Assembly: GCA_963798285.1 (NCBI GenBank)
Contig: CAWCSR010000003.1
Span: 400,905-464,904 of the forward strand
From: an uncultured Thermoleophilia bacterium
GTDB taxonomy: Bacteria > Actinomycetota > Thermoleophilia > UBA2241
Length of the DNA: 64,000 nt
Direction of reading: 5' to 3'
A program made the position numbers and the translations under genes. Shown here piece by piece: positions 24,900 through 58,340 of the stretch (position 1 is the first letter of the stretch; each line of letters opens with the position of its first letter). The notes below the pieces were generated by a model. That model had not been told where the DNA came from, did not search any database, and saw only the letters and a list, made by a program, of their open reading frames with translations.

Positions 24900-25771
24900 G
24901 GACGGTCTTCGAGCTCGGTGGCGACCTCGCGCTGGCCGTGGCGGAGACGCCACCCGCCGCCGAGCGTCCGGACCCCGGCGCCGCCGGGCCGTACCCGACG
25001 AACGGGCTGCAGAAGGGGCTCCTGCTGCTCGACGAGGCGCAGGAGCTCAGCAGCGAGGGTGTCGGCTTTGCCGTGCCCATCCTCAAGCGTGGCCCCCGGG
25101 CGGTCTTCCCCGGCGGCGTCGAGATCACGGTCCACCCCGGGAGCCCGCAGTCGCTCACCATGACGTTCACGATGGACCGCGTGGAACGCCTGGGAGGACG
25201 ACGCCGGCGCCACTTCCTCCACCGGCCGCTCGACGAGGCGCGTGAGGCGTTCGCCCTGCTCTACCGGCGCGCCCCGCCCCTCCGGCGTCCGCTCCTGGCC
25301 GGCTCCAACGGCATCCGCTGGCTGCTGCGCGTCAGGACCCGCTACGAGCAGACGACGCCCGTGGCCATCGTGCCCGTGACGTGCACGGCCGGCGAGCACC
25401 CGGGCGAAGTCCTCGTCAGCGCCGACCTGAGCCAGCTGCCGGACGCCGTGACCGAGATCATCCTCATGAACGAGCTCGGAGCCGACGCGTTCGGCCGCTA
25501 CATCGACAGCGACGGCGCCGACCTGCGCGGCGCCGGGATCGGCGCGTGGAACCGGGTGCGCGCCGCTACCGGCTCGTTCGTCGCGGAGGAGAACGGCGTC
25601 TCGTTCACCCTCGAGAGTGACCCCGATCCGGACGCGCCCGCCCGCCTCTTCCGCGGCCGCGAGGTCGCCCGGGGCCGGCTGGCATGGGCCGGGTTCGGGT
25701 ACTCCCTGCGGCCCGGCCCGGCGAAGTTCACGTACCGGCTGCGGATCGGCCGGAACGAAGTGTCGCCGTGA
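24896..25771 (+). CDS. Soluble protein of unknown function (291 aa), translationally coupled on both sides
   Basis: GTGA start/stop overlap with the upstream gene (24896-24899) and with the downstream gene (25768-25771). No TM and no motif I recognise. Confidence 0.55.
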   Translation: MRTVFELGGDLALAVAETPPAAERPDPGAAGPYPTNGLQKGLLLLDEAQELSSEGVGFAVPILKRGPRAVFPGGVEITVHPGSPQSLTMTFTMDRVERLGGRRRRHFLHRPLDEAREAFALLYRRAPPLRRPLLAGSNGIRWLLRVRTRYEQTTPVAIVPVTCTAGEHPGEVLVSADLSQLPDAVTEIILMNELGADAFGRYIDSDGADLRGAGIGAWNRVRAATGSFVAEENGVSFTLESDPDPDAPARLFRGREVARGRLAWAGFGYSLRPGPAKFTYRLRIGRNEVSP

Positions 25772-27229: not shown

Positions 27230-28558
27230 TCAAGCCACGACCGGCTGCTTCGCCGCGAACGCCGTCATCGTCTCCTCGATGCGCCGCCGCAGCCAGATCT
27301 CGTCGATCTCGGAGCTGAAGACGAACGTGACCTCGTTCTCGTGCGTCCAGTCGCGGCCGGTGACGCTGCCGCCCAGCCGCTCCCACAGCCTCGAGCCCGG
27401 CAGCGGCATCGGCACGTTGAACGAGATCTCCGCCAGCGGCAGCTCGAGGGCGAACGCGAAGGTGTCCTCGATGTCGGCCGCGCTCTCACCCGGATAGCCG
27501 ACGATGAAAAAAGCCGCGACCTCGATACCCGCATCGCTGTACACGTTCACCGCGCGCACGCTCTGCTCGACCGTCATCTGCTTCTGCATGAGGTCGAGGG
27601 TCGCCTGGCTGCCGGATTCCAGGCCGAGGTAGACGCGCCGGCAGCCGGACGCCCGCATCACGGCGGCGGTGACGGGGTCGATCCCGTTGGCGCGCGAGAG
27701 GCAGCTCCACGTGAGCCCGAGCGGCGTCACGCGCCGGCAGAACTCCTCGAGGTAGTCACGGTGGAGCGTGAAGGTGTCGTCGGCGATCCACAGGCCGTCG
27801 TACCCGAGCCGGACGATGTCGTCGATCTCGGCCATGACCGCGTCGAGCGGCCGGCGCCGAACTGCGTTGCCGAAGACCGGCTTGGAGCAGAACTCGCAGT
27901 CATAGGGACAGCCCAGGGTCGCGAGTAGCGTCGTGGGCCGGTAGCCGCCGGGCGCCCACTCGCGCTGGTAGGCGCGGTGGTCGAAGTCGCCGCGGTCGGG
28001 CAGCGGGTAGGCGGCGATCTCCGCCTGGGACTGGTGCACCGGTGGGCTGGCCACCAGCACGCCGTCGACGTGAGCTACGAGGCCGGCGTATCCGGCGAGC
28101 GGCAGGTCGCCGAGCGTCGCCGGCGTGACGCGCCGCTCCAGATAGTCGCGGCAGAACGCGGGGAAGCTCGTGTCGGCCTCCCCGCGGAACACGACGTCGG
28201 CGTGCGGCAGAAAGCGGTCCGGGAACACGGTCGGCAGCGGACCGCCGGCCACCAGCAGCGCGCCGGGCAGCCGTTCGCGGACCACCGCCGCGATGTCCAG
28301 GGCATTGCCGGTGAGGCTGACCATGACGGAGATGCCGACGATCGCCGGCCGCCAGGCCACGAGGTCGTCGATCAGCTCGTCGAACGAGCTGAAGGTGCCG
28401 TCGAACACGCGCGCGCCCACACCCGCCCTCTTGAGGTGGGCGCTCAGCAGTGCGGGACCGAGAGGCGGGAACAGGACCTCGGTCCTCGCCCTGGTGCGAA
28501 AGTACGGGAACACCAGGGCCACACCTCGTTGCCTCCTCAGCCACGGTGTCTCGACCAT
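27230..28558 (-). CDS. B12-binding-domain (class B) radical SAM enzyme, paralog 3 (closest to paralog 2)
   Basis: ALVFPYF…FPPLGPALLSAHLKRAGVGARVFD…IVGISVM. TLGCPYDCEFCSK. GLESGSQATL. The start is taken at ATG 28558; TTG 28564 is also possible. Confidence 0.85.
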   Translation of the reverse strand: MVETPWLRRQRGVALVFPYFRTRARTEVLFPPLGPALLSAHLKRAGVGARVFDGTFSSFDELIDDLVAWRPAIVGISVMVSLTGNALDIAAVVRERLPGALLVAGGPLPTVFPDRFLPHADVVFRGEADTSFPAFCRDYLERRVTPATLGDLPLAGYAGLVAHVDGVLVASPPVHQSQAEIAAYPLPDRGDFDHRAYQREWAPGGYRPTTLLATLGCPYDCEFCSKPVFGNAVRRRPLDAVMAEIDDIVRLGYDGLWIADDTFTLHRDYLEEFCRRVTPLGLTWSCLSRANGIDPVTAAVMRASGCRRVYLGLESGSQATLDLMQKQMTVEQSVRAVNVYSDAGIEVAAFFIVGYPGESAADIEDTFAFALELPLAEISFNVPMPLPGSRLWERLGGSVTGRDWTHENEVTFVFSSEIDEIWLRRRIEETMTAFAAKQPVVA

Positions 28559-28662
28559 GAGCAATGCTTGCCCGCCGAGCCCGGGGCGTCAACGTTGACT
28601 GCTTCTTCGGCGACGCGACCGCAGGCTGCAGACGAGGCGCGAGGTGTGACAGTATCGCCACG

Positions 28663-29514
28663 ATGGACGCCCGCCAGCTCATCGACAGGCGATACTCCTG
28701 CCGCACCTGTCTCGAGCGGCCGATCTCGGACGCGGACGCGAAGTCGCTCGGCGACTTCATGGCCGCCCGGACGACCGGACCGCTCGGCTCGGCCGTGCGT
28801 TTCGGCCTCGTCGCCGCCTCCCCCGACGACGAGGGCGCGCTCAAGCGCCTCGGCACCTACGGGTTCATCAAGGGCGCCAGGGCCTTCATCGTGGGCGCCG
28901 TGCGCAAGGGCCCCGGCGACCTCGAGGACTTCGGCTACCTCCTCGAGGAGGTGGTCCTGCACGCCACCGGCCTGGGGCTCGGCACCTGCTGGCTCGGCGG
29001 CACGTTCACGCGCAGCACCTTCACGGCCCGCTTCGGCGGTGTGGCGAAGGACGAGACCATCCCGGCGGTGGTCTCCGCCGGCTATCCGGGCGACGACGGC
29101 ACGGAGCGCATCCGCGAGCGGGAGGAAGGCACGCGGCGCTTCCCGCCGGACGAGCTCTTCTTCTCCGATGAGTGGGCCGTGCCGCTCGGCCTCGAGCGCG
29201 GGCACGGCTACGCCGCCGCGCTCGAGGCCGTCCGCATGGCTCCGTCGGCGACCAACAAGCAGCCCTGGCGCATCGTGCGCCGCGGCGGCGACTGGCACTT
29301 CTACCTGGCGCGCTCCAAGGGCTACGGCAAGGGCAGTCCGTGGTTCAAGCTGCTGCGCATCGCCGACCTGCAGCGCGTGGACCTCGGCATCGCCATGTGC
29401 CACTTCGCGCTCGTGGCGCGCGAGTGCGGCCTCGGCGGGCGCTGGATCGTGGACGACCCGGGGCTGGCGACGCCGGCCCCGGGCATCGAGTACACGGCCA
29501 CCTGGCGCGCGTAG
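28663..29514 (+). CDS. Nitroreductase-superfamily flavoprotein (TM1586-like)
   Basis: RRYSCRTCLERPIS…GLGTCWLGGTF…APSATNKQPWRIV. Transcribed divergently from radical SAM paralog 3. Confidence 0.65.
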   Translation: MDARQLIDRRYSCRTCLERPISDADAKSLGDFMAARTTGPLGSAVRFGLVAASPDDEGALKRLGTYGFIKGARAFIVGAVRKGPGDLEDFGYLLEEVVLHATGLGLGTCWLGGTFTRSTFTARFGGVAKDETIPAVVSAGYPGDDGTERIREREEGTRRFPPDELFFSDEWAVPLGLERGHGYAAALEAVRMAPSATNKQPWRIVRRGGDWHFYLARSKGYGKGSPWFKLLRIADLQRVDLGIAMCHFALVARECGLGGRWIVDDPGLATPAPGIEYTATWRA

Positions 29515-48394: not shown

Positions 48395-49063
48395 TCAGGA
48401 GACCCAGGTCGCCAGCTCGTCGAGAGGGGCGCGCGAGCGCTCGAAGGTGTTGGCGGGAGCGTCGAGTTCCGGGTGGCCGAGGGTGACGGCGACGACCATG
48501 CGCTGCTCCTCGGAGCCGGGCAGCAACTGCCGCAGCAGGCCCGGGTAGCGGACCAGCGTGGTGGATTGGCAGGTGCCCAGGCCCTTGTCGTAGGCGGCGA
48601 GGCACACGTTCTGCACGAGCGACGCCGTGTCGTAGCTCGCGTACGCGGGGGCGAGGCAGTCCTCGAACCCGAACACGAGCAGGACGGGGGCGCCGAAGCA
48701 GTCGGCCGTGCGCGCCAGGGAGGCGGCCGGGCCGGAGGCTTCGCCGGCCGCTTCCATCGTCTCCGCGCGCGTCTTCATCAGCGCGACCGCGCGCGCCGAG
48801 CACGCCTGCGGCCAGTCACCGGTCTGGGTGCCCGACAGGTCGGAGGCGTCGTCCTCCTCGCGGGCGAGCGCGGCCTTGAACGCGGCCTTGAAGCGCTCCA
48901 GCGCCTCCCCGGTGACCACCCAGACACTCCAGGCCTGCGTGTTGCGCGACGAGGGCGCCCACCGCGCCTCATCGAGGATCTCGCGCACCAATTCCTGAGG
49001 GACCGGCTCCGTCGTATAGGCGCGGATACTCCGCCGCCCGCGAATGACGCTTTCCAATTCCAT
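48395..49063 (-). CDS. Nitroreductase-family FMN oxidoreductase
   Basis: IRGRRSIRAYTTEPVPQELVREILDEARWAPSSRNTQAWSVWVV. ATG after AAGGAGAG. Confidence 0.85.
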   Translation of the reverse strand: MELESVIRGRRSIRAYTTEPVPQELVREILDEARWAPSSRNTQAWSVWVVTGEALERFKAAFKAALAREEDDASDLSGTQTGDWPQACSARAVALMKTRAETMEAAGEASGPAASLARTADCFGAPVLLVFGFEDCLAPAYASYDTASLVQNVCLAAYDKGLGTCQSTTLVRYPGLLRQLLPGSEEQRMVVAVTLGHPELDAPANTFERSRAPLDELATWVS

Positions 49064-49143: not shown

Positions 49144-49788
49144 TCAGCGTAGCAGTGCTCGCACGACAGACAGGCCGCGCGAGGCGTCGTCACACCAGGC
49201 GTCCGCGCCGACCTGCTCGCTCGCCGTCTGGTCCACGGGAGCGCCGCCGATGACGATCGGCAGGCGTCGCTCCCAAGTCGACGTGCGCTCGCGCACGAGG
49301 GCGATGGTCTGCTTCATGCTGTCGTAGCCGGTGGTGAGCAGGGAGGACAGCCCCAGCACATCTGGGCGCTCACGTTCGACGACGTCGGCGATGTGCTCGG
49401 GGGTCACGTTCACTCCGAGGTCGACCATGTCGTAGCCCTCGGCGTCGAAGAGTGTGATGACGATGTTCTTGCCGATGTCGTGGATATCGCCTCGCACCGT
49501 GGCGATGACCATGCTGCGCTCCCGGGCAGCGTGTGCGGAAATCTCCCCGCGCGGCACGAGGATCTCGGCGGCCTCCCGGAAGATCTCGCCGGCCATGATG
49601 AGGGCGGAGATGAAGTACGTGCCCTTCTCATAGAGTTTGCCGACGCGCTCCATGCCCAAACGGCACTCAGCGAGGAGGGTCGCAGGATCCTCGTCCGCAT
49701 CGAGGCGGCGGCGGATGGCGGCGATCGCGCCGCGCTCGTCCATCCGCACGATGAGTTCGTCGAGAGCGTTCTCGGGTTTGGCCGTCAC
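49144..49788 (-). CDS. Corrinoid (B12-binding) protein, class B, co-transcribed with a GntR regulator
   Basis: GTG at 49788 lies 4 nt after the GntR stop, with AGGAG inside the GntR 3' end. Cap helix bundle (YFISALIMAGEIFREA). DxHxxG motif RGDIHDIGKN. …GLSSLLTT…IVIGGAP. Confidence 0.8.
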   Translation of the reverse strand: MTAKPENALDELIVRMDERGAIAAIRRRLDADEDPATLLAECRLGMERVGKLYEKGTYFISALIMAGEIFREAAEILVPRGEISAHAARERSMVIATVRGDIHDIGKNIVITLFDAEGYDMVDLGVNVTPEHIADVVERERPDVLGLSSLLTTGYDSMKQTIALVRERTSTWERRLPIVIGGAPVDQTASEQVGADAWCDDASRGLSVVRALLR

Positions 49789-49792
49789 CGGG

Positions 49793-50561
49793 TCAACTCC
49801 TCTTCTCCCCGGAACCGACGAGGCCGACGGTGGTCGACAATCTCAGGCGATCGGCGCGACCGACGAAGCGGCCCCAGCTCTCCGGGCGCTCCTCGAAATC
49901 GTAGAAGAGGTGCTCGAGGACCCACGCCGCGATGCCCGGCTGCTCGTTCAGATACGCGGCCTCTGCCTCCGTGAAGGCGGACGCATGCAGGGTCAGACGA
50001 CCGTACTTGATGTCCGAGCCCCATCGCTCCGGAGAAGAGATCCTGCAGCGCAGTGACGCCGAGCTCGGCCTCGACGAGGGGCCGAGCGGGATCGAAGACC
50101 AGGTACTCGCTGTGGTAGAAGAGCGGCTCATCCCCGCGCCTGAGCAGCCGCTTGATGGAGATGACGCGGTCGTCCTCCCCGACCTCGAGCTTCTCGCGTA
50201 CCCGGACAGACGGCGAGACGATGCGCGCCTCGATGATGTGCGCCTCGATGTCCGGGTCGGCCAGATACTCCTGCAATTCGCTGAGGTCGAAGAGCGCGGT
50301 GCTGAGCTGCGGCACTTTGACGAACGTCCCGCGACCGTGTTCCGTGACGGCGACGTCCTCACGCACGAGCTCGGCGATCGCCCGCCTCACGGTCATCGGG
50401 CTGACGCCATAGGCGGCGCAGAGTTCGGCCTCGGACGGCAAGCGGTCGCCCGGCCGATACTCCCCGCGGGCGATGCTCTCGCGGATGCTCCGCGCGAGCT
50501 GGGCATAAGGCGGCTCGAACGATTCCCTGTCGATAGCAGCGGTCTGTTTCACGCCGCCCAT
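49793..50561 (-). pseudogene. GntR/HutC-family regulator (wHTH + UTRA), one frameshift near 50035-50045
   Basis: PYAQLARSIRESIARGEYRPGDRLPSEAELCAAYGVSPMTVRRAIAELV. After …GVTALQDLFSG a second frame continues ERWGSDIKYGRLTLHASAFTEAEAAYLNEQPGIAAWVLEHLFYDF…. This aligns with the intact paralog at 56896. Confidence 0.8.
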
Positions 50562-50582
50562 TCTAGCACTTCCCTACTTCCC

Positions 50583-50611
50583 TAGACCAGTGGGGAACTT
50601 GGCGTTATACT
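50583..50611 (+). promoter_or_regulatory. Sigma-70-like promoter candidate TAGACC-17-TATACT for the corrinoid/URO-D operon
   Basis: -35 at 50583-50588, 17-nt spacer, -10 at 50606-50611, about 85 nt upstream of the ATG at 50696. It overlaps an ACTTCCCT x2 direct repeat (50568-50583) and a CTAGACCAGT half-palindrome. Confidence 0.4.
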
Positions 50612-50695
50612 GGCTGTCGCACAGTCAGGGGGCCGCTGCCGGACGACTTGCGGCGCAGCGGCGAATGAGTCTCGTACCATCAGGGAGGCGCAGAG

Positions 50696-51333
50696 ATGTC
50701 ACAGGAGTTGACCGACGCCATCGTCGGCATGCGCGAGGAGGAGGCCCTCGGCCTCGTCCAGAGCATGCTCGAGGCCGGCATAGATCCGAAGACCGTGCTC
50801 GACCAAGCCAAGGACGCGATGACCGAGCTCGGGCGCCGCTTCGAGTGCGAAGAGGCGTTCATCCCCGAGCTCATCATGGGCGGCGAGATCATGAAGAACA
50901 TCGCCGAAGAGCTGAAGCCGCACCTCAAGGGCGAGGCCGAGGAGGCCAAGCGCGGCACCATCGTCATCGGCACCGTGCAGGGCGACATCCACGACATCGG
51001 CAAGGACATCGTCGTGATGATGCTCGGCATCAACGGCTACGAGGTGCACGATCTCGGGCGTCGACGTGCCCGCGGACAAGTTCATCAGCGAGATCCGAGA
51101 GAGCGGCGCGCAGGTCGTCGGCCTGAGCGGCCTGCTCACCCTGGCCTTCGACTCGATGAAGGCCACCGTCGATGCCATCGCCGCCGCCGGCCTGCGCGAC
51201 CAGGTCAAGATCATGGTCGGCGGGGCGCCGGCGGACGAGCAGGTCGCAGGGCTACACCGGCGCCGACGGCTGGGGCAACGACGTGTCGGTGGCCCTCAAG
51301 CTGGCGGCCGAGTGGACGGGAGGTGCGTCATGA
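50696..51333 (+). pseudogene. Corrinoid (B12-binding) protein, class A, with two +1 frameshifts (GGG at 51056-51058 and 51249-51251)
   Basis: AFIPELIMGGEIM. GDIHDIGKD. After …YEVHDLG the next frame gives VDVPADKFISEI…GLSGLLT…IMVGGAPADEQVAG. A third frame gives YTGADGWGNDVSVALKLAAEWTGGAS*. This is colinear with the intact paralog at 56087-56719. Confidence 0.8.
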
Positions 51334-52586
51334 CGCCGACCGGCGAGGAGCTCTACGCGCAGCGCGAAGGGCGGTTCAACGACATCGTCGCGCTCAGGAA
51401 GCCCGACCACATCCCGGTCATCGGGCACACGATCCACTACTTCGCCGACCTCTGGAAGGGTCACTCCCAGAAGGAGGCGGGCTACAACCACCCGCAGCAC
51501 TATGAGGCCATCAGGGCCGCCACCGTCGAGTTCGGGTGGGAGTTCGAGCCCACCAACGCGCTGTTCGCCGCCGACGGCTATGAGGCGCTCGGCATCAAGC
51601 AGTTGCGCTGGCCCGGCGGCGACTTGCCCGACGACGTCGGCTTCCAGTTCGTCGAGGGCGAGTACATGAAGGCCGACGAGTACGAAGAGTTCCTGGCCGA
51701 CCCCAACGGCTTCACGCTCCGCAAGATCTTCCCGCGCATCGCCGACAATCTTGCGGGGTTCGAGCAGGTGCCGATCCCGCCCCTCTATTTCATGGCAAAC
51801 ACCTACTACCTGCTCAACGTCGGCGGCCCACTGCTGGGCGCGCCGCCGTTGCGCAAGGCCATGGAGAGCCTGCTGGCGATGTCCGACGCCGTAGGGGCGT
51901 ATTTTGCGGCGGATGCGGCCAGCGCACAGGAGATGGCCGCGCTCGGCTACCCGCGCACGTGGGGAGCGCCTATCGTCCCGGCGTTCGATGTGGTCTCAGA
52001 CATGCTCCGCTCGCTGCGCGGAAGCACGCTGGACATGTACCGCCATCCTGATCAACTGCTCGCCACCATCGATCGCATTCAAGAGGCTCAGATCGGCCTG
52101 GCGATGATGGTCATGAAGGTCACCGGCAATCCGCGCGTCTTCATCCCCATGCATCGCGGGGCCGGCGGCTTCATGAGCGACGAGCAGTTCGAGAAGTTCT
52201 ACTGGCCCACGTTCAAGGCTCTCGTGATGGCCATCATCGACGCCGGCGGCGTGCCGTGTCCTCTCTTCGAGGGTGACTACACGCCGCGTCTCAAGTACCT
52301 CGCCGAGTTCCCGCCCGGCACGATCGCCGGCCACTTCGACAAGATCGACCGAAAGAAATTCAAGGAGATCCTCGGCGACAAGATGTGCTTCTGGGGCAAC
52401 GTGCCGGTCTCGCTCCTGTGCACCGGCACGCCGCGGCAGGTGAAAGACGACGTCAGGGAGCTCATCGAACTGTTCGGCGACACCGGCGCGCTGATCCTCG
52501 ACTCTGGCCTGGGCGTCCCAGACGAGGCGAAGCCGGAGAACCTGCATGCGATGCGCGAGGCAGCGGACGAGTACGGGGTCTTCTGA
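51330..52586 (+). CDS. URO-D/MtaA-family methyltransferase-like protein (418 aa)
   Basis: ATGA overlap with the corrinoid A stop. C-terminal block FWGNVPVSLLCTGTPRQVKDDVRELIELFGDTGALILDSGLGVPDEAKPENLHAMREAADEYG is typical of the uroporphyrinogen-decarboxylase/MtaA fold. Confidence 0.7.
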   Translation: MTPTGEELYAQREGRFNDIVALRKPDHIPVIGHTIHYFADLWKGHSQKEAGYNHPQHYEAIRAATVEFGWEFEPTNALFAADGYEALGIKQLRWPGGDLPDDVGFQFVEGEYMKADEYEEFLADPNGFTLRKIFPRIADNLAGFEQVPIPPLYFMANTYYLLNVGGPLLGAPPLRKAMESLLAMSDAVGAYFAADAASAQEMAALGYPRTWGAPIVPAFDVVSDMLRSLRGSTLDMYRHPDQLLATIDRIQEAQIGLAMMVMKVTGNPRVFIPMHRGAGGFMSDEQFEKFYWPTFKALVMAIIDAGGVPCPLFEGDYTPRLKYLAEFPPGTIAGHFDKIDRKKFKEILGDKMCFWGNVPVSLLCTGTPRQVKDDVRELIELFGDTGALILDSGLGVPDEAKPENLHAMREAADEYGVF

Positions 52587-52627
52587 CGACGGCGGAGGCC
52601 ATCGCCGGGACTCAGGAGAGCAGCAAA

Positions 52628-52667
52628 CAGGAGGGCGCCGTGCAAAGGAGTGCACGGCGCCCTCCTG
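52628..52667 (+). terminator. Perfect 17-bp stem with AAGGAG loop between the URO-D-like and DUF1638 genes (intra-locus terminator or processing hairpin)
   Basis: caggagggcgccgtgca-aaggag-tgcacggcgccctcctg, 42 nt after the stop and 44 nt before the next ATG. No U-tract. Confidence 0.5.
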
Positions 52668-52710
52668 CTACCATGACGTCCGAGCAGAACACCGCGACCC
52701 TCGGGGACAC

Positions 52711-53469
52711 ATGACAATGGACGACCAGCCCAAGGCACCCAGGCCCGGCCTTGGCGGGCTCAAGCTCATCGCCTGCCCGGCCGTCATCGGCGAACTCGCC
52801 GACGGCGCCACTCAGGGCGTCGACTGCCACGAGCTCGAGGCACAACTGCACGTGAGCCCGGAGCGGCTCAAGGAGGCGCTCCGGGTCGCCGTCGCCGAGG
52901 CCGACGCACCCGGCGCGACGATCGTGCTCGGCTACGGCCTCTGCTCCAATTCCGTCCTCGGCCTCAAGACCGAGCGAGCGACCCTCGTCGTCCCCAGGGT
53001 GGATGACTGCATCGCGATGATGCTTGGGTCGAACGAGGCGTTCTCCGCTGAGTCCGAGAAGGCGCGCGGCAGCTACTACGTCGCCAAGGCGTATCTGGAA
53101 GAATGCGACACGATCATGAGTGAGCACGACAAGCTGGTGGAGAAGCGCGGCCGCGAGCGCGCCGAGCAGATGATGCGCCTGCTGCTCAAGCACTACACAC
53201 GCATCGTGCTCATCGACACCGGCCGCTACGACATGGAGCCGCACCGGGCACGGGTCGCCGGCTTCGCCGAGACCTTCGACCTGGCGGTCGAGGAGATCCC
53301 GGGAACGACGCGGATCCTCGATGCGCTCGTGGCGGAGGAGTGGGGTGACGACTTCGTCGTCGCCCCGCCGGGCCACGAGCTCACGCTCCGGGACTTCCGC
53401 CCCGAGCTCTTCTCGGGCGAGGCCTCCGCCCCGCCGGCCGCCGCGTCGCCGAGCGACGGGCCGGCGTGA
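52711..53469 (+). CDS. DUF1638-like protein
   Basis: LKLIACPAVIGEL…IVLGYGLCSNSVLGL…LVVPRVDDCIAMMLGS…GSYYVAKAY…. This layout is what I recall for DUF1638, a family found beside corrinoid methyltransferase genes. Confidence 0.55.
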   Translation: MTMDDQPKAPRPGLGGLKLIACPAVIGELADGATQGVDCHELEAQLHVSPERLKEALRVAVAEADAPGATIVLGYGLCSNSVLGLKTERATLVVPRVDDCIAMMLGSNEAFSAESEKARGSYYVAKAYLEECDTIMSEHDKLVEKRGRERAEQMMRLLLKHYTRIVLIDTGRYDMEPHRARVAGFAETFDLAVEEIPGTTRILDALVAEEWGDDFVVAPPGHELTLRDFRPELFSGEASAPPAAASPSDGPA

Positions 53470-54053
53470 ACATCCTCTGCATCGCCGGCTTTCTCGGATC
53501 CGGCAAGACCACCGTGTTGCTCGAGGTCGCGCGCGCGATGACCGAAGCGGGCTGGCGGCTCGCCGTCATCGAGAACGAGATCGGCGAGATCGGAGTGGAC
53601 GGCGGCTACGTGCGCGAGCAGGGCCTGCCGGTGCAGGAGCTCTTCGGCGGCTGCATCTGCTGCACCCTGCAATCCGGGCTGGTGGAGACCCTGCGGACCG
53701 TCGAGAGCCGCTACAGCCCGGACTGGGTGCTGATCGAACCCACGGGGCTGGCCGCCCCGGCCGACCTGCTGGGCGTCGTCGTCGACAATTGCCCCGACAT
53801 CGACATGATCCGGGTACTCACACTCGTCGACGCCGCTCGCTGGCCGATGCTCCTGGAGGTCGTCGAGCCACTCGTCACGGCCCAGCTCGAAGCCGCCGAC
53901 ATCGTCGCCGTCAACAAGGTCGACGAGGTCGACGACGAGGCACTGGCGGCCGTCATGAAGAGCGTTCGCGCGCTCGCCGGCAAGGCGACGGTGCTGCGGG
54001 CCTCCGCCGCCACGGGCGCCGGCATGAAGCGCCTCCTCGGAGCCTTCGTCTGA
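53466..54053 (+). CDS. CobW/HypB/UreG-type (G3E family) P-loop GTPase, short form
   Basis: GTGA overlap with the upstream gene. GFLGSGKTT P-loop. GCICCT metal-binding-type motif. LIEPTGLA. VNKVD (NKxD). Confidence 0.8.
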   Translation: MNILCIAGFLGSGKTTVLLEVARAMTEAGWRLAVIENEIGEIGVDGGYVREQGLPVQELFGGCICCTLQSGLVETLRTVESRYSPDWVLIEPTGLAAPADLLGVVVDNCPDIDMIRVLTLVDAARWPMLLEVVEPLVTAQLEAADIVAVNKVDEVDDEALAAVMKSVRALAGKATVLRASAATGAGMKRLLGAFV

Positions 54054-54472
54054 TGAGCACGCACGAGGCCGGCGGTCACGACCACCTCCGGCTCCTCGGC
54101 GACAACGCCCAGCCGGCCGTGTTCGCGGCCCGGGCCGACGTCGTGTTCTCGCCGCCGGCGCGAGCCGACCAGGTCGAGGTGGCCGTCACGCGCTTCTTCA
54201 CCGCCCTCTCCGGCGGCCTGGCCGACGCCGGCTGCACGCTGGTCGGCCACGTCAAGGGAACGCTTGCGGCTCACGGCTACGGAGACCTCGGGTTCCACGC
54301 CACCGCGCTCGCGGTGCCCCCCCTTCTGACGGGCGGCATCGCCGGCGACGCCCGGGAGGCCGTGCTCACCGTGAACGTCATCGTCTTCGGCGTGCCGGAC
54401 GGAGACCTGCCCGCCATCGTCACCGAAGCCTGGTCCCGAGCCACCGGCACGCAGGCGGTCTGGCGTCGCTGA
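54053..54472 (+). CDS. Hypothetical 139-aa protein translationally coupled to the CobW-like GTPase
   Basis: ATG overlaps the TGA of the upstream gene (TGATG). No recognisable motif. N-terminus is His-rich (MSTHEAGGHDH). Confidence 0.45.
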   Translation: MSTHEAGGHDHLRLLGDNAQPAVFAARADVVFSPPARADQVEVAVTRFFTALSGGLADAGCTLVGHVKGTLAAHGYGDLGFHATALAVPPLLTGGIAGDAREAVLTVNVIVFGVPDGDLPAIVTEAWSRATGTQAVWRR

Positions 54473-54741
54473 ACGGATGCTGCCGAGTACCTGGGCTTGG
54501 GCGCACGGCGAGGCACCTCCGGAGTACGGCGTCCTGATCCGCTCGCGCAGGGTCCTCGGCCGGGCAGAGCTGCCCCAACCTGGCCGGCCCGGCCTTCTTC
54601 CTCGCTCGCTCCACAGCGACTTCATGACCTGCCAGACCCGGTGGACGGCGGCGGCATGTGGTGACGCCGACGGCGGAGGCCCTTGTGGACCCCCGCCATC
54701 GGCGCTCACGGACCCGAGTGGTGGGCCCGGCCCTCAGTGCA

Positions 54742-56094
54742 TCAGATCTGCGCCCCGTACTTCTTGCCGGCGTCGATCATCGCCTTCATGCAGTCGGCCT
54801 TGGCTTGGTCGATCACGATGCCCGAGCCGAGGATGAAGCCGCCGGGACCGGCGACGTCCTCGATGAGCTGGCGCACGTAGTCGTCCATTTCCTGCGGCGT
54901 GCCGGTCGTGATGAGCGCGCCGGGCACGTTGCCGCCGAAGCACTGGTAGCCGCCGAGATGCTTGCGCGCCTCACTCATGTCCGTGGCGTCGAACATCCAG
55001 ATCATCTTGCCCGCCGGGATCTCGAGATCATGGATGGCCTCGAGACGCTCGTTGTACCCTCCCTCGGCGAAGATGAGCGGCACGATGCCCTCCTCGATGA
55101 GTCCGAGGAGGACCTTCTTGAACGTCGGCCAGTAGAAGGTGCGGAAATCCTCGTCCGAGAGGAACCCGTCAGCGCCCTTGTGCAGCGGGATGAACACCAT
55201 CGGATGCTTGTTGACATCGCAGGCGCGTACCCCCCAGTCAATCGCCAACGGCACCAGCCGCTCGCAGGCCTCGAGGACCTTCTCGGGACGACGGAACTTG
55301 TCGAGCATGAGCCCACGAGTGCCGCGGAGGGTGTCGCCGAGGATGTCATACGGCGCCTTGGTAGCGCCGCCGGCGAAGCCCGGCATGCCGTAGGTGGCGA
55401 GCGCCTTGCCGTCCATCGCACCGGCGGCCTGGATCCACTCGAGCGCCAACCTGCCCGCCTCGAGGAGCTTCTTGAACATCTCCTGCACTGGGGGCGTGCC
55501 GAACGGAATGAAGAACGGGCCCGTCAGGGGAGCTTCCACGAGGTCGGTGAACGGCGAGAGCATCGTCCACGGTTCCATGGCTCCGAAGATCCGCGGGAGG
55601 TAGAAGCGCTGCCAGAAGTTGGAGGGGTCGGCGATGAGGAGGTCGTACTCATCGGCGTGCATCCACTCCTTCTCAACGTACTGGTAGCCGGCGGTATCCG
55701 GTACCCCGTGGCCGGGCCAGTCGTAGAGTTTGTAGTCGAGAACGTCGAAGATCTCGCAGGGAGCGATGTTGATGGAGAAGGCGAGTACATCCTGCTTGAA
55801 CTCGGCGTGCCACTTCTGCCAGGCGACGTCGAGGCGCGCGAAGTCGTAGTAGGCCTCGCGCGCTGTCATGCCGTCCCACAGCGCCGGGAACAGCCCGATC
55901 CAGGGCGCGATCGGCACCCGCTGGGGCTTCTTGAGCTGGACCGCGTCACGGAACAGCTGCACACGATCCTGGTACTGCTTCTTGACGTCTGCGGACGCGA
56001 ACTCGACGTCGGGGTTCTGCCACACGTCCATGCGGACCTTGAAGCGTTCGTCAGGCGTCAGATCGTTCCAGTTGTCGGCGAACACGTCATTCAC
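54742..56094 (-). CDS. URO-D/MtaA-family methyltransferase-like protein, paralog 2 (450 aa)
   Basis: GTG at 56094 overlaps the corrinoid A' stop by 8 nt. FIPLHKGADGFLSDEDFRTFYWPTFKKVL… and CFGGNVPGALITTGTPQEMDDYVRQLIEDVAGPGGFILGSGIV… are colinear with the gene at 51330. Confidence 0.7.
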   Translation of the reverse strand: MNDVFADNWNDLTPDERFKVRMDVWQNPDVEFASADVKKQYQDRVQLFRDAVQLKKPQRVPIAPWIGLFPALWDGMTAREAYYDFARLDVAWQKWHAEFKQDVLAFSINIAPCEIFDVLDYKLYDWPGHGVPDTAGYQYVEKEWMHADEYDLLIADPSNFWQRFYLPRIFGAMEPWTMLSPFTDLVEAPLTGPFFIPFGTPPVQEMFKKLLEAGRLALEWIQAAGAMDGKALATYGMPGFAGGATKAPYDILGDTLRGTRGLMLDKFRRPEKVLEACERLVPLAIDWGVRACDVNKHPMVFIPLHKGADGFLSDEDFRTFYWPTFKKVLLGLIEEGIVPLIFAEGGYNERLEAIHDLEIPAGKMIWMFDATDMSEARKHLGGYQCFGGNVPGALITTGTPQEMDDYVRQLIEDVAGPGGFILGSGIVIDQAKADCMKAMIDAGKKYGAQI

Positions 56095-56719
56095 CCCCCG
56101 TCCACTGCCTGGCGAGATCGACGGCCGCCACGGCATCTTTGCCAAAGCCGTCCGCGCCGGTGTACGCAACGATCTGCTCGGTGATCGGCGCACCGCCGAT
56201 CATCAGCTTCACGTCGCCACGCATGCCGGCGGCGCCGGCCTCAGTGACCAGGCGTTTCATCGCCTCGATCGCGCTCGTGAGCAGGCAGCTCATGGCGATG
56301 ATCTGCGCCTTCTTCTCGCGCGCTGTCTCGAGGAACGCAGCCACCTTGACGTCGACGCCCAGATTGACGACGTCGAACCCGGCGAGGTCGAGCATCGTCG
56401 CGACGATGTCCTTGCCGATGTCGTGAATGTCACCCTCGATGGTGCCGATGACCACGACGCCGAGCTTCTCCTCGGCCGGCACGCTCGCAAGGTGCGGCTT
56501 GAGCTTGGCGGAAATGCCGGTCATGATCTCGCCGGCCATGATCAGTTCGGGAATGAAGGCCTCGCCGCAGGCGAAGCGCTCCCCGATCGTATCCATCGCG
56601 CGCTTGCAGTCGCTGAGGATGCCGACCGGATCGGCCCCCTCCCCCAGCAGGCGATCGACGATGGCCAGAGCGTCGTCTTCCCGAAGGTCGACCACCGCCT
56701 GGATCAGCTCTTCTGCCAC
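56087..56719 (-). CDS. Corrinoid (B12-binding) protein, class A (intact copy)
   Basis: AFIPELIMAGEIM cap. GDIHDIGKD (DxHxxG). MSCLLTS. LMIGGAP. Ends YTGADGFGKDAVAAVDLARQWTGGE. SD AAAGGAGGAAA. Confidence 0.85.
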   Translation of the reverse strand: MAEELIQAVVDLREDDALAIVDRLLGEGADPVGILSDCKRAMDTIGERFACGEAFIPELIMAGEIMTGISAKLKPHLASVPAEEKLGVVVIGTIEGDIHDIGKDIVATMLDLAGFDVVNLGVDVKVAAFLETAREKKAQIIAMSCLLTSAIEAMKRLVTEAGAAGMRGDVKLMIGGAPITEQIVAYTGADGFGKDAVAAVDLARQWTGGE

Positions 56720-56787
56720 TTTTCCTCCTTTGCGTCGTGCACTTCTGGAATGTGCGCCGCGTCGCCTTTGCGGCCGATTGAGTCAGC

Positions 56788-56816
56788 TTGCCAGCGCCTA
56801 GGACATAATGTATAGG
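56788..56816 (+). promoter_or_regulatory. Sigma-70-like promoter candidate TTGCCA-17-TATAGG in an unusually AT-rich patch
   Basis: -35 at 56788-56793, -10 at 56811-16. The spacer carries the palindrome ACAT-A-ATGT. GTGCAC hexamers flank it at about 56735 and about 56835. Confidence 0.4.
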
Positions 56817-56895
56817 TATTTCCTCGGGAGGCAAGTGCACGCATGGCTGCTGCTAGCATCCGGCCGTGAGGGACACGACGGAAGGCGCCCGGCAA

Positions 56896-57678
56896 ATGGC
56901 GACTATCCCCGCGGGTCGGGGCATCGACAGAGCGTCCTACGAGCCTGCTTACATCCAGCTCGTCAACATCCTGCGGGGCGCCATCGCCAGCGGTCAGTAC
57001 CAGGCCGGCGACCAGCTCCCCACGGAGTCGGAGCTCTGTTCCGCCTACGACGTGAGCCCGATGACGGTGCGCCGCGCCATCGGCATGCTGCTCGATCAGG
57101 GTGCGGTCACCACCACGAGAGGGCGCGGCACGTTCGTGCAGCCGCTGCGCCTCGCCACGGCCACGTTCGACCTCAGCGAGTTCCACGACATCCTGGCCGA
57201 GCCCGGCGTGACCGCCAAGGTAGTCGAGGCGCGCGTGCTGCCCGCCGGTCCGCGCGCCGCCGCCAACCTCGGCGTCCCGGACGGCACCCACGTGGTCTCC
57301 ATCCGCCGCATCCTGCAGCGCGGCGACGAGCCGCTGATCTACCATCGCGAGTCGCTCATCTACGACCCCACGCGCCCGACCATCGAGTCCGAGCTCGACG
57401 TCACCGCCCTGCGCGACATGTTCGAGGGCGGCGTCGGTTCGGGCCCCAAGCGCGGCGAGCTCATCCTCCACGCCTCCGTCCTCACCGAGGAGGAGGCCGG
57501 CCGCCTCACGCTGCCGGCAGGCGGCGCCGCCTGGGTGCTCGAGCACATCTTCTACGGCTACGACGAGCGACCGATCAGCTGGGGCTGCTTCATCTGCCGC
57601 GGCGAGCTGTTCTCGTTCCGCGCCAGTGTGGGCGCCTCGGCGCCCGAGGGCGACAGCGCGAGGAGGAACCGCACATGA
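56896..57678 (+). CDS. GntR/HutC-family regulator (wHTH + UTRA), intact copy
   Basis: MATIPAGRGIDRASYEPAYIQLVNILRGAIASGQYQAGDQLPTESELCSAYDVSPMTVRRAIGMLL. The start is chosen by alignment with the paralog; GTG 56866 is also open. Confidence 0.85.
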   Translation: MATIPAGRGIDRASYEPAYIQLVNILRGAIASGQYQAGDQLPTESELCSAYDVSPMTVRRAIGMLLDQGAVTTTRGRGTFVQPLRLATATFDLSEFHDILAEPGVTAKVVEARVLPAGPRAAANLGVPDGTHVVSIRRILQRGDEPLIYHRESLIYDPTRPTIESELDVTALRDMFEGGVGSGPKRGELILHASVLTEEEAGRLTLPAGGAAWVLEHIFYGYDERPISWGCFICRGELFSFRASVGASAPEGDSARRNRT

Positions 57679-58340
57679 CCGAGTTCGAGGGGCTCGACCC
57701 CGCATCGCTCGCCGCACGCATCGCCGCCCTGGACGAGCAGGGCGCGCTCGACGCGGTCGGCGCACGCATCGCCGCCGGAGACGACCCACTGGTGATCATC
57801 GAGGAGTGCCAGCTCGGCATGCGCTGGGTCGGGGAGCACTATCAGACGGGCAAGTACTTCATCTCCGGCCTCATCATGGCCGGCGAGATCTTCCGCGAGG
57901 CCATGGTCGACCTCGGGCCGCTGCTTCCCGAGGAGACCCCCGAGGCCGGACAGGGCACGGTGCTGCTCTGCACCGTCCGCGGCGACATCCACGACCTGGG
58001 CAAGAACATCGTCACCATGATGCTGCGCTCCTACGGGATCATCGTGCACGACCTGGGAGTGGACGTCTCGCCCGACGAGGTCGTGCGCAAGGCCGTGGAG
58101 CTCAAGCCGGACATCGTCGGCCTCTCCGGCCTCCTGACCGTCGCCACCGACGGCATGAAGGCGACGGTCCAGGCGGTGCGCGACGGAGAGAAGCAGATCG
58201 GCCGCCGCCTGCCGGTCATCATCGGCGGCGGCATCGTCGACGAGCAGACCCGCACCTGGACGGGCGCCGACCTCTGGGCCAACGACGCTTCGCGCGGCGT
58301 GAAGCTCATCCGCGAGCAGATCGCGGCGGCCCGCTTCTGA
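57675..58340 (+). CDS. Corrinoid (B12-binding) protein, class B (intact copy), translationally coupled to GntR
   Basis: ATGA overlap with the GntR stop. AGGAGGAA lies 6 nt upstream. YFISGLIMAGEIFREA. RGDIHDLGKN. GLSGLLTV. VIIGGG. Confidence 0.85.
   Translation: MTEFEGLDPASLAARIAALDEQGALDAVGARIAAGDDPLVIIEECQLGMRWVGEHYQTGKYFISGLIMAGEIFREAMVDLGPLLPEETPEAGQGTVLLCTVRGDIHDLGKNIVTMMLRSYGIIVHDLGVDVSPDEVVRKAVELKPDIVGLSGLLTVATDGMKATVQAVRDGEKQIGRRLPVIIGGGIVDEQTRTWTGADLWANDASRGVKLIREQIAAARF

Follow-up and report, generated by a model that had tools for sequence, protein, structure and literature searches.

A COG0523-type GTPase encoded in two pieces beside corrinoid methyltransferase genes in an uncultured Thermoleophilia bacterium

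Gene layout of the locus

The window (i.e., the whole 64-kb stretch of DNA from an uncultured Thermoleophilia bacterium that was analysed) carries three coupled genes on its forward strand. The first gene (52711-53469, +) encodes a DUF1638 protein of 252 aa when counted from its first ATG; gene calls on a near-identical contig place the start 6 nt further on, at the ATG at 52717, which gives 250 aa. The second gene (53466-54053, +) has a GTG start and encodes the 195-aa G domain of a COG0523-type G3E GTPase. The third gene (54053-54472, +) starts with ATG and encodes a 139-aa protein that begins with MSTHEAGGHDH and is described below as the detached C-terminal domain of this GTPase. As an earlier, sequence-only reading of this DNA had claimed, the genes are joined by overlaps that can be read directly: the GTG start of the GTPase lies on the DUF1638 stop within GTGA (53466-53469), and the ATG of the 139-aa ORF lies on the GTPase stop within TGATG (54051-54055). 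Both the 4-nt and the 1-nt overlap are kept in relatives. Given that the family of the 139-aa protein (at least 360 representatives) falls into 120 clusters at 90% identity and that the gene order of the locus is conserved across dozens of contigs, a chance ORF pattern is excluded.

Directly upstream of the trio are a gene for a corrinoid (i.e., B12-binding) protein (50696-51330, +) and a gene for a 418-aa uroporphyrinogen decarboxylase (URO-D)-like methyltransferase (51330-52586, +; PF01208, E = 2.2e-16). The former is frameshifted in the window and is intact, with 211 aa, in the near-identical contig L001; the frameshifts are therefore attributed to assembly error rather than to a pseudogene. 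A second URO-D-like methyltransferase gene (54742-56193, -), which is convergent with the trio and also lacks the zinc motif discussed below, is paired with its own corrinoid protein gene (56087-56719, -; PF02310 and PF02607). Farther upstream, a nitroreductase-family flavoprotein that is weakly BluB-like (48395-49063, -; 48.5 bits against the BluB model, under the cutoff of 150) is encoded divergently from the module and is conserved next to it in Thermoleophilia.

Between the URO-D-like and DUF1638 genes lies a hairpin (52628-52667, +) with 17-nt arms (52628-52644 and 52651-52667) and a 6-nt loop, whose arms are 100% complementary, as had been noticed before. The 124-nt intergenic RNA has a folding energy of -63.9 kcal/mol (z = -5.7 versus shuffles), and no U-tract is found at the hairpin. 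It is likely a terminator, an attenuator or an mRNA-stability element. Related hairpins in which the inner stem is changed are found in loci L004, L005, L034, and L045, and the hairpin is missing in L006, L030, L037, and L050, where the gap is only 3-39 nt.

The claim that no RACE/RamA-type activase is present also held: neither a domain search of the main ORFs of the window nor the RACo HMM found an activase of the RACo/RamA type. Likewise, no Fe-S (Fer2 or 4Fe-4S), RACo middle or ASKHA domain was detected in the trio proteins or in the main ORFs of the window, the window contains no cobN/S/T chelatase genes, and no ribosomal-protein paralogues or zinc-uptake genes are found near the trio within it.

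The GTPase, its detached domain and DUF1638

The 195-aa GTPase matched PF02492 over residues 4-177 with E = 1.7e-40 and 138.9 bits (cutoff 20.7). Its translation contains a Walker A motif, or P-loop, GFLGSGKTT (residues 8-16; 53487-53513, +), a CxCC metal-binding motif C63-I-C-C66 (53652-53663, +) that aligns to the GCICC of YjiA, a Walker B motif LIEPTG and an NKxD motif NKVD; Walker A, LIEPTG and NKVD are all intact and align with YjiA. The YjiA structure 1nij was matched with E = 6e-15, and in this alignment the ENE and CxCC residues of the two proteins coincide. The protein is thus the short G3E GTPase with GCICC that had been recognised earlier. Its best NCBIfam model, NF041053 (CobW-related selenoprotein), likewise describes short G-domain-only proteins of about 195 aa and aligned with residues 1-191 of the 195; the score of 118.7 bits was, however, under the cutoff of 180, no in-frame TGA or selenocysteine is found in the GTPase and the motif residues are Cys.

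Models of characterised relatives scored lower still. The GTPase obtained 81.6 bits against CobW TIGR02475 (cutoff 332.1; N-terminal part only), a partial match of 75.5 bits against ZigA NF038288 (cutoff 600) and 18.5 bits against MeaB/ArgK TIGR00750 (cutoff 240.75), and its score of 23.2 against PF03308 exceeded the threshold of 23.1, yet no single stretch passed. With the split and fused forms described below, the G domain shares 36-55% identity (126-210 bits), as against 29-40% (68-96 bits) with canonical COG0523 proteins. By these similarities, the window G domain and its split and fused relatives form a subfamily apart from canonical COG0523, which speaks against a grouping of the GTPase with zinc-homeostasis COG0523 paralogues.

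The GTPase ends at residue 195, and the C-terminal domain is not on the same polypeptide. The sequence-only reading had taken this domain to be lacking and the 139-aa protein to be an unknown with a His-rich N-terminus. The His-rich HEAGGHDH stretch was confirmed; the protein is, however, no unknown, as it takes the place of the COG0523 C-terminal domain with its His-rich linker and is encoded as a separate gene; fused homologues show this relation, and the predicted fold order and weak structural matches point the same way. A profile of the 139-aa family found approximately 20 proteins of 324-361 aa in which a GTPase domain and this domain are fused; PF02492 matched them at residues 4-178 and the 139-aa family at residues approximately 215-335, and some have His-rich linkers. 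The AlphaFold2 (AF2) model of the 139-aa protein (pLDDT 90.2) has the predicted element order beta-alpha-beta4-alpha(-beta), which is the same as the order beta1-alpha1-beta2-beta3-beta4-beta5-alpha2 of COG0523 C-terminal domains (PMC11672702, section 5.1.4). The top three Foldseek matches of the model in the PDB were YjiA, although they were weak (E 0.013-0.03, TM 0.35-0.37).

Homology to CobW_C as such is statistically weak. When hhalign was run with the detached-domain family against the C-terminal domains of six canonical COG0523 proteins found in plasmid records, it aligned them collinearly, with a probability of only 2.2%. Searches of the 139-aa protein and 47 relatives against Pfam and NCBIfam to E<=10 returned no CobW_C (PF07683) and nothing meaningful, and PDB sequence searches with the single 139-aa sequence and with the profile of the broad alignment (A2) returned no match. 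The family has a signature of its own, G60-C61-T-L-V-G65-H66-V-K68-G69 (54230-54259, +), in which G60, C61, L63, G65, H66, K68, and G69 are invariant in a 48-sequence alignment (A1) and G-H-x-K is invariant in A2; in general form the conserved motif reads GC-x-L-[IV]-GH-[IV]-KG.

The assignment of the first gene was verified by a profile search, in which PF07796 matched with E = 2.9e-40 and 138.2 bits (cutoff 27) over model positions 2-160 of 161. Residues conserved across phyla are C22, H47, GYGLC78SN, and D98-D99-C100, which include the two cysteines (C78 and C100) in GYGLCSN and DDCIAM that had been pointed out earlier as conserved-looking. The AF2 model of DUF1638 (pLDDT 88.9) gave only noise in a Foldseek search of the PDB (best E 0.027, TM <0.25), with no solved structural relative, and the fold therefore gives no functional inference; a PDB sequence search with DUF1638 returned no match. 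Apparent DUF1638-GTPase fusions (P0406 and P0441) and a GTPase-domain fusion (P0112) in long-read assemblies are probable frameshift artefacts and were left out.

Gene neighbourhoods and known systems

Neighbourhoods were counted within a 5-kb radius in 47 loci from representative genomes; the locus scan used a narrow alignment, so that this sample is biased to the motif GCxL[IV]GH[IV]K[GA]. The GTPase gene is directly upstream of the detached domain in 45 of the 47 loci, a corrinoid protein is encoded within 5 kb in 39 and a URO-D-type methyltransferase in 40. The association with corrinoid and URO-D genes spans at least eight phylum- or class-level lineages, and the split GTPase thus travels with B12 methyltransferase genes in many uncultured bacteria. 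Like the domain architecture, the motifs and the relation between fused and split forms, these neighbourhoods were observed directly. They uphold the earlier claim that the trio belongs to a corrinoid methyltransferase system, and the GTPase pair is not found mostly away from corrinoid genes. The pair in locus L048 stands by itself, with no corrinoid genes within 10 kb. The nitroreductase-family flavoprotein is near the pair in 12/47 loci. DUF1638 is encoded within 5 kb in only 20/47 loci, mostly of Actinomycetota, and is absent from the other 27, so that the claim that the trio forms one unit was not sustained.

Further analyses revealed that the methyltransferases adjoining the GTPase fall into a single clade, in which the residues of H, HxC, and C are conserved (100%, 94%, 86%, and 100%). 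According to tree and column analysis, this H...HxC...C pattern is the MtaA-type zinc motif and is absent from other URO-D clades; the zinc-motif clade also obtains higher scores with the MtaA/CmuA model. Both URO-D-like methyltransferases of the window belong outside this clade and are without H...HxC...C. A zinc-motif URO-D precedes the trio in most Thermoleophilia loci and is missing in the window and in L001 and L002, while L030, L040, and L071 carry both URO-D types. Thus, the upstream module to which the trio had been thought to be attached is not its usual partner. No RACo gene is found within 10 kb on either side in any Thermoleophilia locus.

The fused forms adjoin genes for RACo, DUF3786, and the corrinoid iron-sulfur protein CFeSP. 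RACo adjoins the fused form in approximately 10 loci and the split form in L011, L016, and L023. Given that no zinc methyltransferase is near the fused relatives, the common feature of the whole family is a corrinoid protein or its activator and not a zinc enzyme. That the split form correlates with the zinc motif may be due to the joint inheritance of a single operon type and would then amount to one evolutionary observation. DUF3786, in which H78, C82, and C196 are conserved, is directly upstream of the GTPase, as is DUF1638; the idea that the two are related adaptors was rejected (hhalign probability 0.3%).

COG0523 subfamily 13 was linked to corrinoid methyltransferases already in 2009 (Haas 2009, PMC2770081). 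Its Methanosarcina members MA4382 and MM1072 are also G3E GTPases of the CobW/YjiA family and lie beside mtaA, mtaB, mtaC, and ramM, that is, next to the zinc enzymes MtaA and MtaB, and members were also reported in Clostridium and Desulfitobacterium (PMC2770081). The window resembles subfamily 13 in its gene context, with corrinoid and URO-D genes directly upstream. Unlike in subfamily 13, its C-terminal domain has a gene to itself and has diverged too far to be matched by Pfam CobW_C, DUF1638 is coupled upstream and the hosts are uncultured Thermoleophilia and other bacteria. With YjiA, ZigA, and ZNG1 the window GTPase shares the Walker A, ENE Glu, CxCC, and NKxD motifs and, going by the predicted fold, the succession of a G domain, an often His-rich linker and a beta-alpha-beta4-alpha C-terminal domain, and among solved structures YjiA matches both pieces best. 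In contrast to these proteins, it consists of two polypeptides, its G domain is shorter (approximately 195 versus 240 aa; 29-30% identity), no Zur or zinc-uptake context is found and a motif of its own, Cys-x4-His-x-Lys-Gly, is conserved in the C-terminal domain.

CobW, the Co(II) chaperone for the CobNST chelatase, is also a COG0523 protein with CxCC and a link to B12; unlike CobW, the window GTPase scores under the TIGR02475 cutoff and lies near genes whose products use B12 and do not make it, with no cobN/S/T nearby. MeaB/CblA, which gates AdoCbl loading into methylmalonyl-CoA mutase, is likewise a G3E GTPase serving a B12 enzyme, but it is without CxCC, and the clients of the window GTPase would be corrinoid proteins of methyltransferases and not a mutase. 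The ATP-dependent reductive activators RACo and RamA share the functional neighbourhood of the GTPase family; in contrast to them, the trio has no ferredoxin or ASKHA domain, and none of its three proteins is homologous to them.

A link of DUF1638 to B12 reactivation has also been published (Price 2018, PMC5764234). A mutant in DUF1638 was auxotrophic for methionine and showed cofitness to split MetH and to a RamA-like protein, and DUF1638 was genetically tied to B12-dependent methionine synthase and a RamA-like activator and co-occurred with RamA-like genes (PMC5764234). PGA1_c13340 of Phaeobacter inhibens and SPO2162 of Ruegeria pomeroyi, which belong to the same Pfam family as the window DUF1638 and lie beside a B12-binding protein, were needed for corrinoid-dependent methyl transfer or were induced along with it (PMC5764234, PMC12478193). 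They occur with split MetH or MtgC systems and a RamA-like activator, and no adjacent G3E GTPase was reported; the window DUF1638, in contrast, is coupled to a GTPase, and RamA/RACo was not found nearby. A search of the literature on CobW/G3E proteins with corrinoid, O-demethylase or Thermoleophilia found nothing beyond Haas 2009 and Price 2018. While the COG0523-corrinoid and DUF1638-B12 links are thus already published, the split architecture is new.

A possible role in corrinoid methyltransferase maturation

Tentatively, and as a possibility somewhat short of probable, we propose as the best explanation that the locus is an accessory maturation module for corrinoid methyltransferases, made up of a two-piece GTPase of the metal-chaperone type and the coupled DUF1638. 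In this proposal we infer that a metal is bound, which metal it is, what the client is and what DUF1638 does. The His-rich tail would gather a divalent metal, for which zinc is the best guess, and, in its GTP-bound state, the G domain would hold this metal at the CxCC + Glu site. The client protein would dock on the detached domain, and hydrolysis of GTP would then release the metal to a protein that takes part in methyl transfer. The split form usually has an MtaA-type URO-D methyltransferase as its neighbour, and the HxC...C site of this enzyme is the strongest candidate for its client; DUF1638 might be an adaptor or another factor with a part in corrinoid reactivation. Metal delivery is what the characterised CxCC COG0523 proteins carry out, i.e., zinc by ZigA and ZNG1, cobalt by CobW, and iron by Nha3 (PMC2770081, PMC7895991, PMC11672702). 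CxCC, the His-rich stretch and the placing in COG0523 point to a metal-ion chaperone more readily than to the loading or re-reduction of cobalamin that had been suggested earlier.

It should be noted that the window trio is intact although the window has no zinc-motif methyltransferase, that the L048 pair is without corrinoid genes within 10 kb, and that 27/47 loci are without DUF1638; these observations stand against the explanation, as do the neighbourhoods of the fused forms and the statistically weak homology of the detached domain to CobW_C.

As to the client, two candidates stand foremost, namely zinc insertion and cobamide handling. In the latter case, which we hold to be unlikely though worth serious attention, the GTPase pair with DUF1638 would gate cobamide loading into apo-corrinoid proteins or help Co(II) repair or re-reduction, by analogy to MeaB/CblA for methylmalonyl-CoA mutase, and Cys or His might ligate cobalt. 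A corrinoid protein is common to both contexts (MtaC-like beside split forms and CFeSP beside fused ones), and this reading also accords with the RACo genes adjoining the fused form, the Methanosarcina COG0523 gene beside ramM (Haas 2009, PMC2770081) and the mutant phenotype and RamA-like co-occurrence of DUF1638 (PMC5764234). However, no characterised CxCC COG0523 protein handles a tetrapyrrole, the GTPase fails the MeaB models and a His-rich tail is a typical feature of proteins that handle metal ions. Having no redox cofactor motif, the GTPase cannot itself supply electrons. RACo was found neither in the window nor within 10 kb in the Thermoleophilia loci, which accords with cobamide handling. 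One may think of a GTP-driven, RACo-independent cobamide loading or Co(II) reactivation by the split GTPase and DUF1638, perhaps with the BluB-like flavoprotein, in Thermoleophilia, which we regard as doubtful; a RACo/RamA gene may also sit elsewhere on the contig of approximately 2 Mb. That the direct client is instead the small Cys/His protein just upstream of the GTPase (DUF1638 here and DUF3786 in the fused context), which would receive a metal or metal centre and then serve corrinoid activation, seems rather improbable to us. Both contexts do have a protein of approximately 200-250 aa with invariant Cys and His (C22, H47, C78, and C100 in DUF1638; H78, C82, and C196 in DUF3786) directly before the GTPase, and the GTGA overlap couples DUF1638 and GTPase translation, but most loci with the GTPase pair have no DUF1638, DUF1638 is found widely without such a GTPase, e.g., in Phaeobacter (PMC5764234), and no homology between DUF1638 and DUF3786 was detectable.

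Two further readings appear remote. A ZigA/YciC-type COG0523 paralogue of general zinc homeostasis, placed here by chance or regulatory convenience and not serving its neighbours, would fit the partial ZigA match and the solitary pair of L048; the score far under the ZigA cutoff, the separate subfamily of the G domain, a neighbourhood conserved in many phyla and the lack of ribosomal-protein paralogues and zinc-uptake genes nearby make it very unlikely. We give equally little credence to the trio being a remnant, whose zinc-motif methyltransferase pair was lost in this genome and whose genes are drifting or were recruited elsewhere. The missing zinc-motif URO-D in the window, L001 and L002, the presence of both types in L030, L040, and L071 and the strong hairpin that, in this sub-lineage alone, stands between the trio and the genes before it would agree with such a loss; all three ORFs are, however, intact, still coupled and 84-94% identical to their relatives, with invariant motifs kept, and another part of the genome could encode the partner.

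Corrinoid methyltransferases drive methylotrophic methanogenesis, acetogenic O-demethylation and the turnover of osmolytes and methoxy-aromatics, and, to our knowledge, the maturation of their metal and cofactor sites is largely obscure beyond RACo and RamA. COG0523 GTPases are ubiquitous, and few have known clients. The 139-aa family, hitherto hypothetical, can now be given the annotation of a C-terminal domain detached from a COG0523-like GTPase, and its two context classes, zinc-motif MtaA-type methyltransferases on the one hand and RACo/DUF3786/CFeSP on the other, make the question of the client testable. A naturally split COG0523 protein could reveal the job of the C-terminal domain, since each half can be expressed and titrated on its own. 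We know of no MeaB-like G-protein chaperone described for B12 methyltransferases; if the client were the cobamide itself, this GTPase would be the first.

The trio and its cluster

Three genes follow one another on the forward strand of the window: ORF1 (52711-53469, +), ORF2 (53466-54053, +; 195 aa) and ORF3 (54053-54472, +; 139 aa). Their linkage, which had been proposed in a sequence-only reading, was borne out in the raw sequence, where the GTG start of ORF2 lies within ...GCGTGA to give a GTGA overlap with the ORF1 stop, and the ATG of ORF3 and the stop of ORF2 form a TGATG overlap. Profile searches confirmed that ORF1 encodes a DUF1638 protein over its full length (PF07796, E = 2.9e-40) and that ORF2 encodes a G3E-type GTPase with a CobW/HypB/UreG nucleotide-binding domain (PF02492, E = 1.7e-40) and the motifs GFLGSGKT, IENE, GCICC, LIEPTG and NKVD. 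ORF3 had no match in Pfam; its product starts with MSTHEAGGHDH and thus has the His-rich N-terminus (HEAGGHDH) noted in that reading.

The surrounding cluster (49144-58340; G+C of the window, 71%) contains four corrinoid-protein genes, two genes for URO-D-like methyltransferases and two GntR regulators, and is bordered by genes for an MFS transporter and a nitroreductase at one end and by the trp operon at the other end. Neither the main ORFs of the 64-kb window nor a search with a RACo HMM revealed a RACo/RamA-type reductive activase, in agreement with the sequence-only reading. Copies of the locus that are identical to it, or nearly so, occur on long-read metagenome contigs, and relatives carry the names of Thermoleophilia or Actinomycetota MAGs. 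In the window, a corrinoid gene (50696-51330, +) is broken over three frames and a GntR gene (49785-50561, -) over two; the near-identical contig L001 has each of them in one piece, and the breaks are long-read assembly indels, not pseudogenes. The trio ORFs are intact in every copy of the locus. A second B12-dependent gene set of the window, unrelated to the trio cluster, groups three B12-binding radical-SAM genes and a TM1586-type nitroreductase (22055-23527, +; 25621-27132, +; 27230-28588, -; 28561-29514, +).

The perfect 17-bp hairpin described upstream of the trio was also recovered (arms 52628-52644 and 52651-52667, 17/17 complementary, 6-nt loop), and it dominates the predicted fold of the intergenic RNA (-63.9 kcal/mol, z = -5.7). 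It is limited to the sub-lineage of the window and a few relatives, and other Thermoleophilia have only 3-39 nt between the methyltransferase gene and DUF1638. At this position, loci L004, L005, L034 and L045 have hairpins of 11-15 bp that have the outer stem GGAGGGCGCC in common with the window and differ in their inner stems; the common outer stem suggests that a structured element between the two genes is conserved within part of this lineage.

A detached domain and a distinct GTPase subfamily

The 139-aa protein, previously listed as unknown, is predicted to be the C-terminal domain of the GTPase, encoded as a separate polypeptide that includes the His-rich linker, because fused homologues have the G domain, a linker and the same core in one protein. 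Its family consists of 120 clusters at 90% identity, all "hypothetical" and all metagenomic. In an alignment of 48 members, the His-rich N-terminal tail was variable, and the invariant core included G60, C61, L63, G65, H66, K68 and G69. The profile made from this alignment had 362 matches at E ≤ 1e-3 among 1.84 billion representative proteins, and about 20 of the best 150 were proteins of 324-361 aa that matched at residues ~215-335. These fused proteins have PF02492 at residues 4-178 and no Pfam call on their C-terminal part; the same G-domain motifs are followed by a linker (His-rich in several, e.g., HEEAHHHSH) and then a GC-x-LIGH-x-KA core. The window GTPase, therefore, retains GCICC as stated earlier, but the CobW C-terminal domain that it was said to lack would be present as the product of the next gene.

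The AlphaFold2 model of the 139-aa protein (pLDDT 90.2) has the element order beta-alpha-beta-beta-beta-beta-alpha(-beta), which matches that described for COG0523 C-terminal domains (PMC11672702, section 5.1.4). Foldseek ranked three YjiA entries first among PDB structures, all with weak statistics (E 0.013-0.03, probability 0.90-0.96, TM 0.35-0.37). None of the 48 family members had a Pfam match at E ≤ 10, the family profile had no match among PDB sequences, and hhalign against six canonical COG0523 C-terminal domains (YjiA, ZigA, CobW and three others, from plasmid records) gave a collinear alignment of 85 columns with K-G and V-F-I-G in register at a probability of just 2.2%. Sequence-level homology to canonical CobW_C was thus not demonstrable by the Pfam and PDB profile searches. 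We consider the positional and architectural equivalence of the detached domain to the COG0523 C-terminal domain as shown and their common ancestry as plausible at most.

The top curated model for the window GTPase was NF041053, "CobW-related selenoprotein", which similarly represents a 195-residue, G-domain-only family and was matched below its cutoff (118.7 vs. 180 bits); the CobW, ZigA, YjiA-like, HypB and MeaB models were all matched far below theirs. In BLASTP comparisons, the window G domain had 41-55% identity (136-210 bits) with split-type G domains of other phyla and 36-46% identity (126-161 bits) with the fused forms (P-numbered metagenome proteins and that of locus L039), compared to 29-40% identity (68-96 bits) with canonical COG0523 proteins (YjiA, ZigA, CobW and others). 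As its scores against split and fused forms exceed those against canonical members, the split and fused forms make up a distinct COG0523-like subfamily. Apparent fusions of DUF1638 to the GTPase (P0406 and P0441, 400-420 aa) and of the GTPase to the detached domain (P0112, 239 aa), all from long-read assemblies, probably arose by read-through where indels fall in the overlaps of 4 nt and 1 nt.

Gene neighborhoods and partner methyltransferases

A scan of one genome per species with the seed motif GCxL[IV]GH[IV]K[GA], annotated with HMMs made from the window's own genes, yielded 47 confirmed loci, all in MAGs. The hosts were Thermoleophilia and other Actinomycetota, Thermodesulfobacteriota, Desulfobacterales, Syntrophobacteria, Chloroflexota, Bacteriovoracaceae, Leptospirales, Spirochaetota, Halobacteroidaceae, Victivallales and Geothermincola. 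The G domain lies immediately upstream of the detached domain at 45 loci, and the remaining two are at contig edges. Within 5 kb, a corrinoid protein is encoded at 39/47 loci and a URO-D-like methyltransferase at 40/47, so the proximity of the GTPase pair to corrinoid proteins holds, but DUF1638 is not a constant partner (20/47: 18 Actinomycetota, one Desulfobacterales and one Geothermincola). Its coupling to the pair is lineage-specific. The typical order is corrinoid - URO-D - DUF1638 - G domain - detached domain in Thermoleophilia, and corrinoid - G domain - detached domain - URO-D or corrinoid - URO-D - G domain - detached domain outside Actinomycetota. Loci without corrinoid genes mostly have truncated flanks, with L048 as the clear exception. 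In this Thermoleophilia MAG (7559-12093), an MFS transporter, the G domain, the detached domain and trpE follow one another and corrinoid, URO-D and DUF1638 genes are absent within 10 kb; the flanks are those of the window, and the GTPase pair is the sole part kept.

Other recurrent neighbors are a pterin-binding MeTr-like methyltransferase (six loci), RACo (four loci) and, immediately after the detached-domain gene, a hydantoinase/MutL-type ASKHA protein (seven loci). At the non-actinobacterial loci L011, L016, L017, L021, L022 (2866-5073), L025, L026 and L057, a ~700-aa protein with Hydantoinase_A, Hydant_A_N and MutL(GlmL)-like ASKHA domains is encoded directly 3' of the detached domain and may activate corrinoid proteins in an alternative, ATP-dependent way. 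The Thermoleophilia locus L034 (8616-10327 and 10439-15537) has two GTPase/detached-domain pairs, two DUF1638 genes and several corrinoid/URO-D modules. The nitroreductase-family flavoprotein of the window (48395-49063, -), whose top curated match, BluB, was far below cutoff (48.5 vs. 150 bits), is a conserved divergent neighbor of the module, found within 5 kb at 12/47 loci (all Actinomycetota, mostly Thermoleophilia), and could be an electron supplier or cofactor processor.

A tree built with 67 URO-D-like proteins of these loci groups nearly all GTPase-adjacent members in one clade. Conserved in this clade are a His (100%), a His-x-Cys pair (94% and 86%) and a Cys (100%), a pattern that we take to be the MtaA/MtbA-type HxCx(n)C zinc motif; Leu/Phe, Lys/Tyr and Leu/Ile occupy these positions in the remaining clades. 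With the MtaA/CmuA model, a member of the GTPase-adjacent clade scored better. Neither URO-D gene of the window falls in this clade; both lie in other clades, and a copy with the zinc motif is absent from the window. L030, L040 and L071 hold a window-type pair together with a zinc-type pair upstream of the trio. Thus, the usual partner appears to have been lost in the window, L001 and L002.

With C-terminal domains of the fused type as seeds, a scan of metagenomes identified 21 loci. At ten loci (L039, from the genome scan, L055, L056, L058, L066, L067, L069, L070, L072 and L074), the fused gene directly follows a DUF3786 gene (4795-5397 in L039). Where the contig is long enough, RACo is present (L039, L055, L056, L058, L066, L067, L069 and L074), and L039, L058, L066, L069 and L074 have genes for the corrinoid iron-sulfur protein CFeSP (CdhD family). 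None of the DUF3786/fused-GTPase loci has a URO-D methyltransferase. Because of this context, what the whole subfamily has in common is not a zinc enzyme but a corrinoid protein, its reductive activator, or both.

Proposed role in corrinoid-dependent methyl transfer

CxCC COG0523 proteins are GTP-dependent metal-ion chaperones, e.g., ZigA and ZNG1 for zinc, CobW for Co(II) and Nha3 for iron (PMC2770081, PMC7895991, PMC11672702); their C-terminal domain is thought to be a client-interaction module and their His-rich stretches to hold metal. On account of these relatives, we tentatively prefer a two-piece metallochaperone, in which the split GTPase would supply some protein of the methyl-transfer system with a metal ion, at best guess zinc. 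As client of the split form, the best candidate would be the zinc-motif methyltransferase, and DUF1638 would be an extra factor tied to corrinoid reactivation. The main rival, a cobamide-level chaperone or repair role, retains the original suggestion that the trio serves cobalamin loading, repair or re-reduction; that suggestion is partly supported, and the role itself is a possibility that we regard with some doubt. Points in its favor are the occurrence of the fused form with RACo and CFeSP genes, the adjacency to ramM published for Methanosarcina (PMC2770081), the lack of RACo near any Thermoleophilia locus and the genetics of DUF1638. A Phaeobacter inhibens DUF1638 mutant was a methionine auxotroph co-fit with a split B12-dependent methionine synthase and a RamA-like protein; a specific function was not proposed by the authors (PMC5764234). 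In a 2025 paper, the homologue of Ruegeria is entered as "predicted to enable reductive recharging of cobalamin" (PMC12478193). The cobamide-level role is disfavored, however, by the fact that tetrapyrrole handling is not known for any CxCC COG0523 protein and by the lack of a redox centre in the GTPase.

It is unlikely, in our estimate, that the client is instead the small Cys/His protein encoded directly upstream, i.e., DUF1638 or DUF3786. DUF3786 has the invariant residues H78, C82 and C196; C22, H47, GYGLC78SN and D98-D99-C100 are among the residues of DUF1638 that are kept from Thermoleophilia through to Desulfobacterales and Geothermincola, as had been surmised for the Cys of GYGLCSN and DDCIAM, and C132 is not conserved. 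The two families, both of which lie directly upstream of the GTPase, have no detectable homology, and neither sequence nor fold searches found a solved structure related to DUF1638. A generic zinc-homeostasis paralogue is very improbable, the window GTPase scoring far below the ZigA cutoff and grouping with split and fused forms, and we give equally little credence to the trio being a remnant in this genome.

The co-localization of COG0523 "subfamily 13" with corrinoid methyltransferases (PMC2770081, in 2009) and the genetic link between DUF1638 and B12-dependent methyl transfer (PMC5764234, in 2018) were already published. New in this study are the assignment of the "hypothetical" 139-aa protein as a predicted detached, divergent C-terminal domain; the two context classes, with zinc-motif URO-D methyltransferases on the one hand and RACo/DUF3786/CFeSP genes on the other; the lineage-specific coupling to DUF1638; and the apparent loss of the usual partner in the window. 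With its C-terminal domain so assigned, the GTPase would be a COG0523-like protein that is naturally split and occurs widely among uncultured bacteria.
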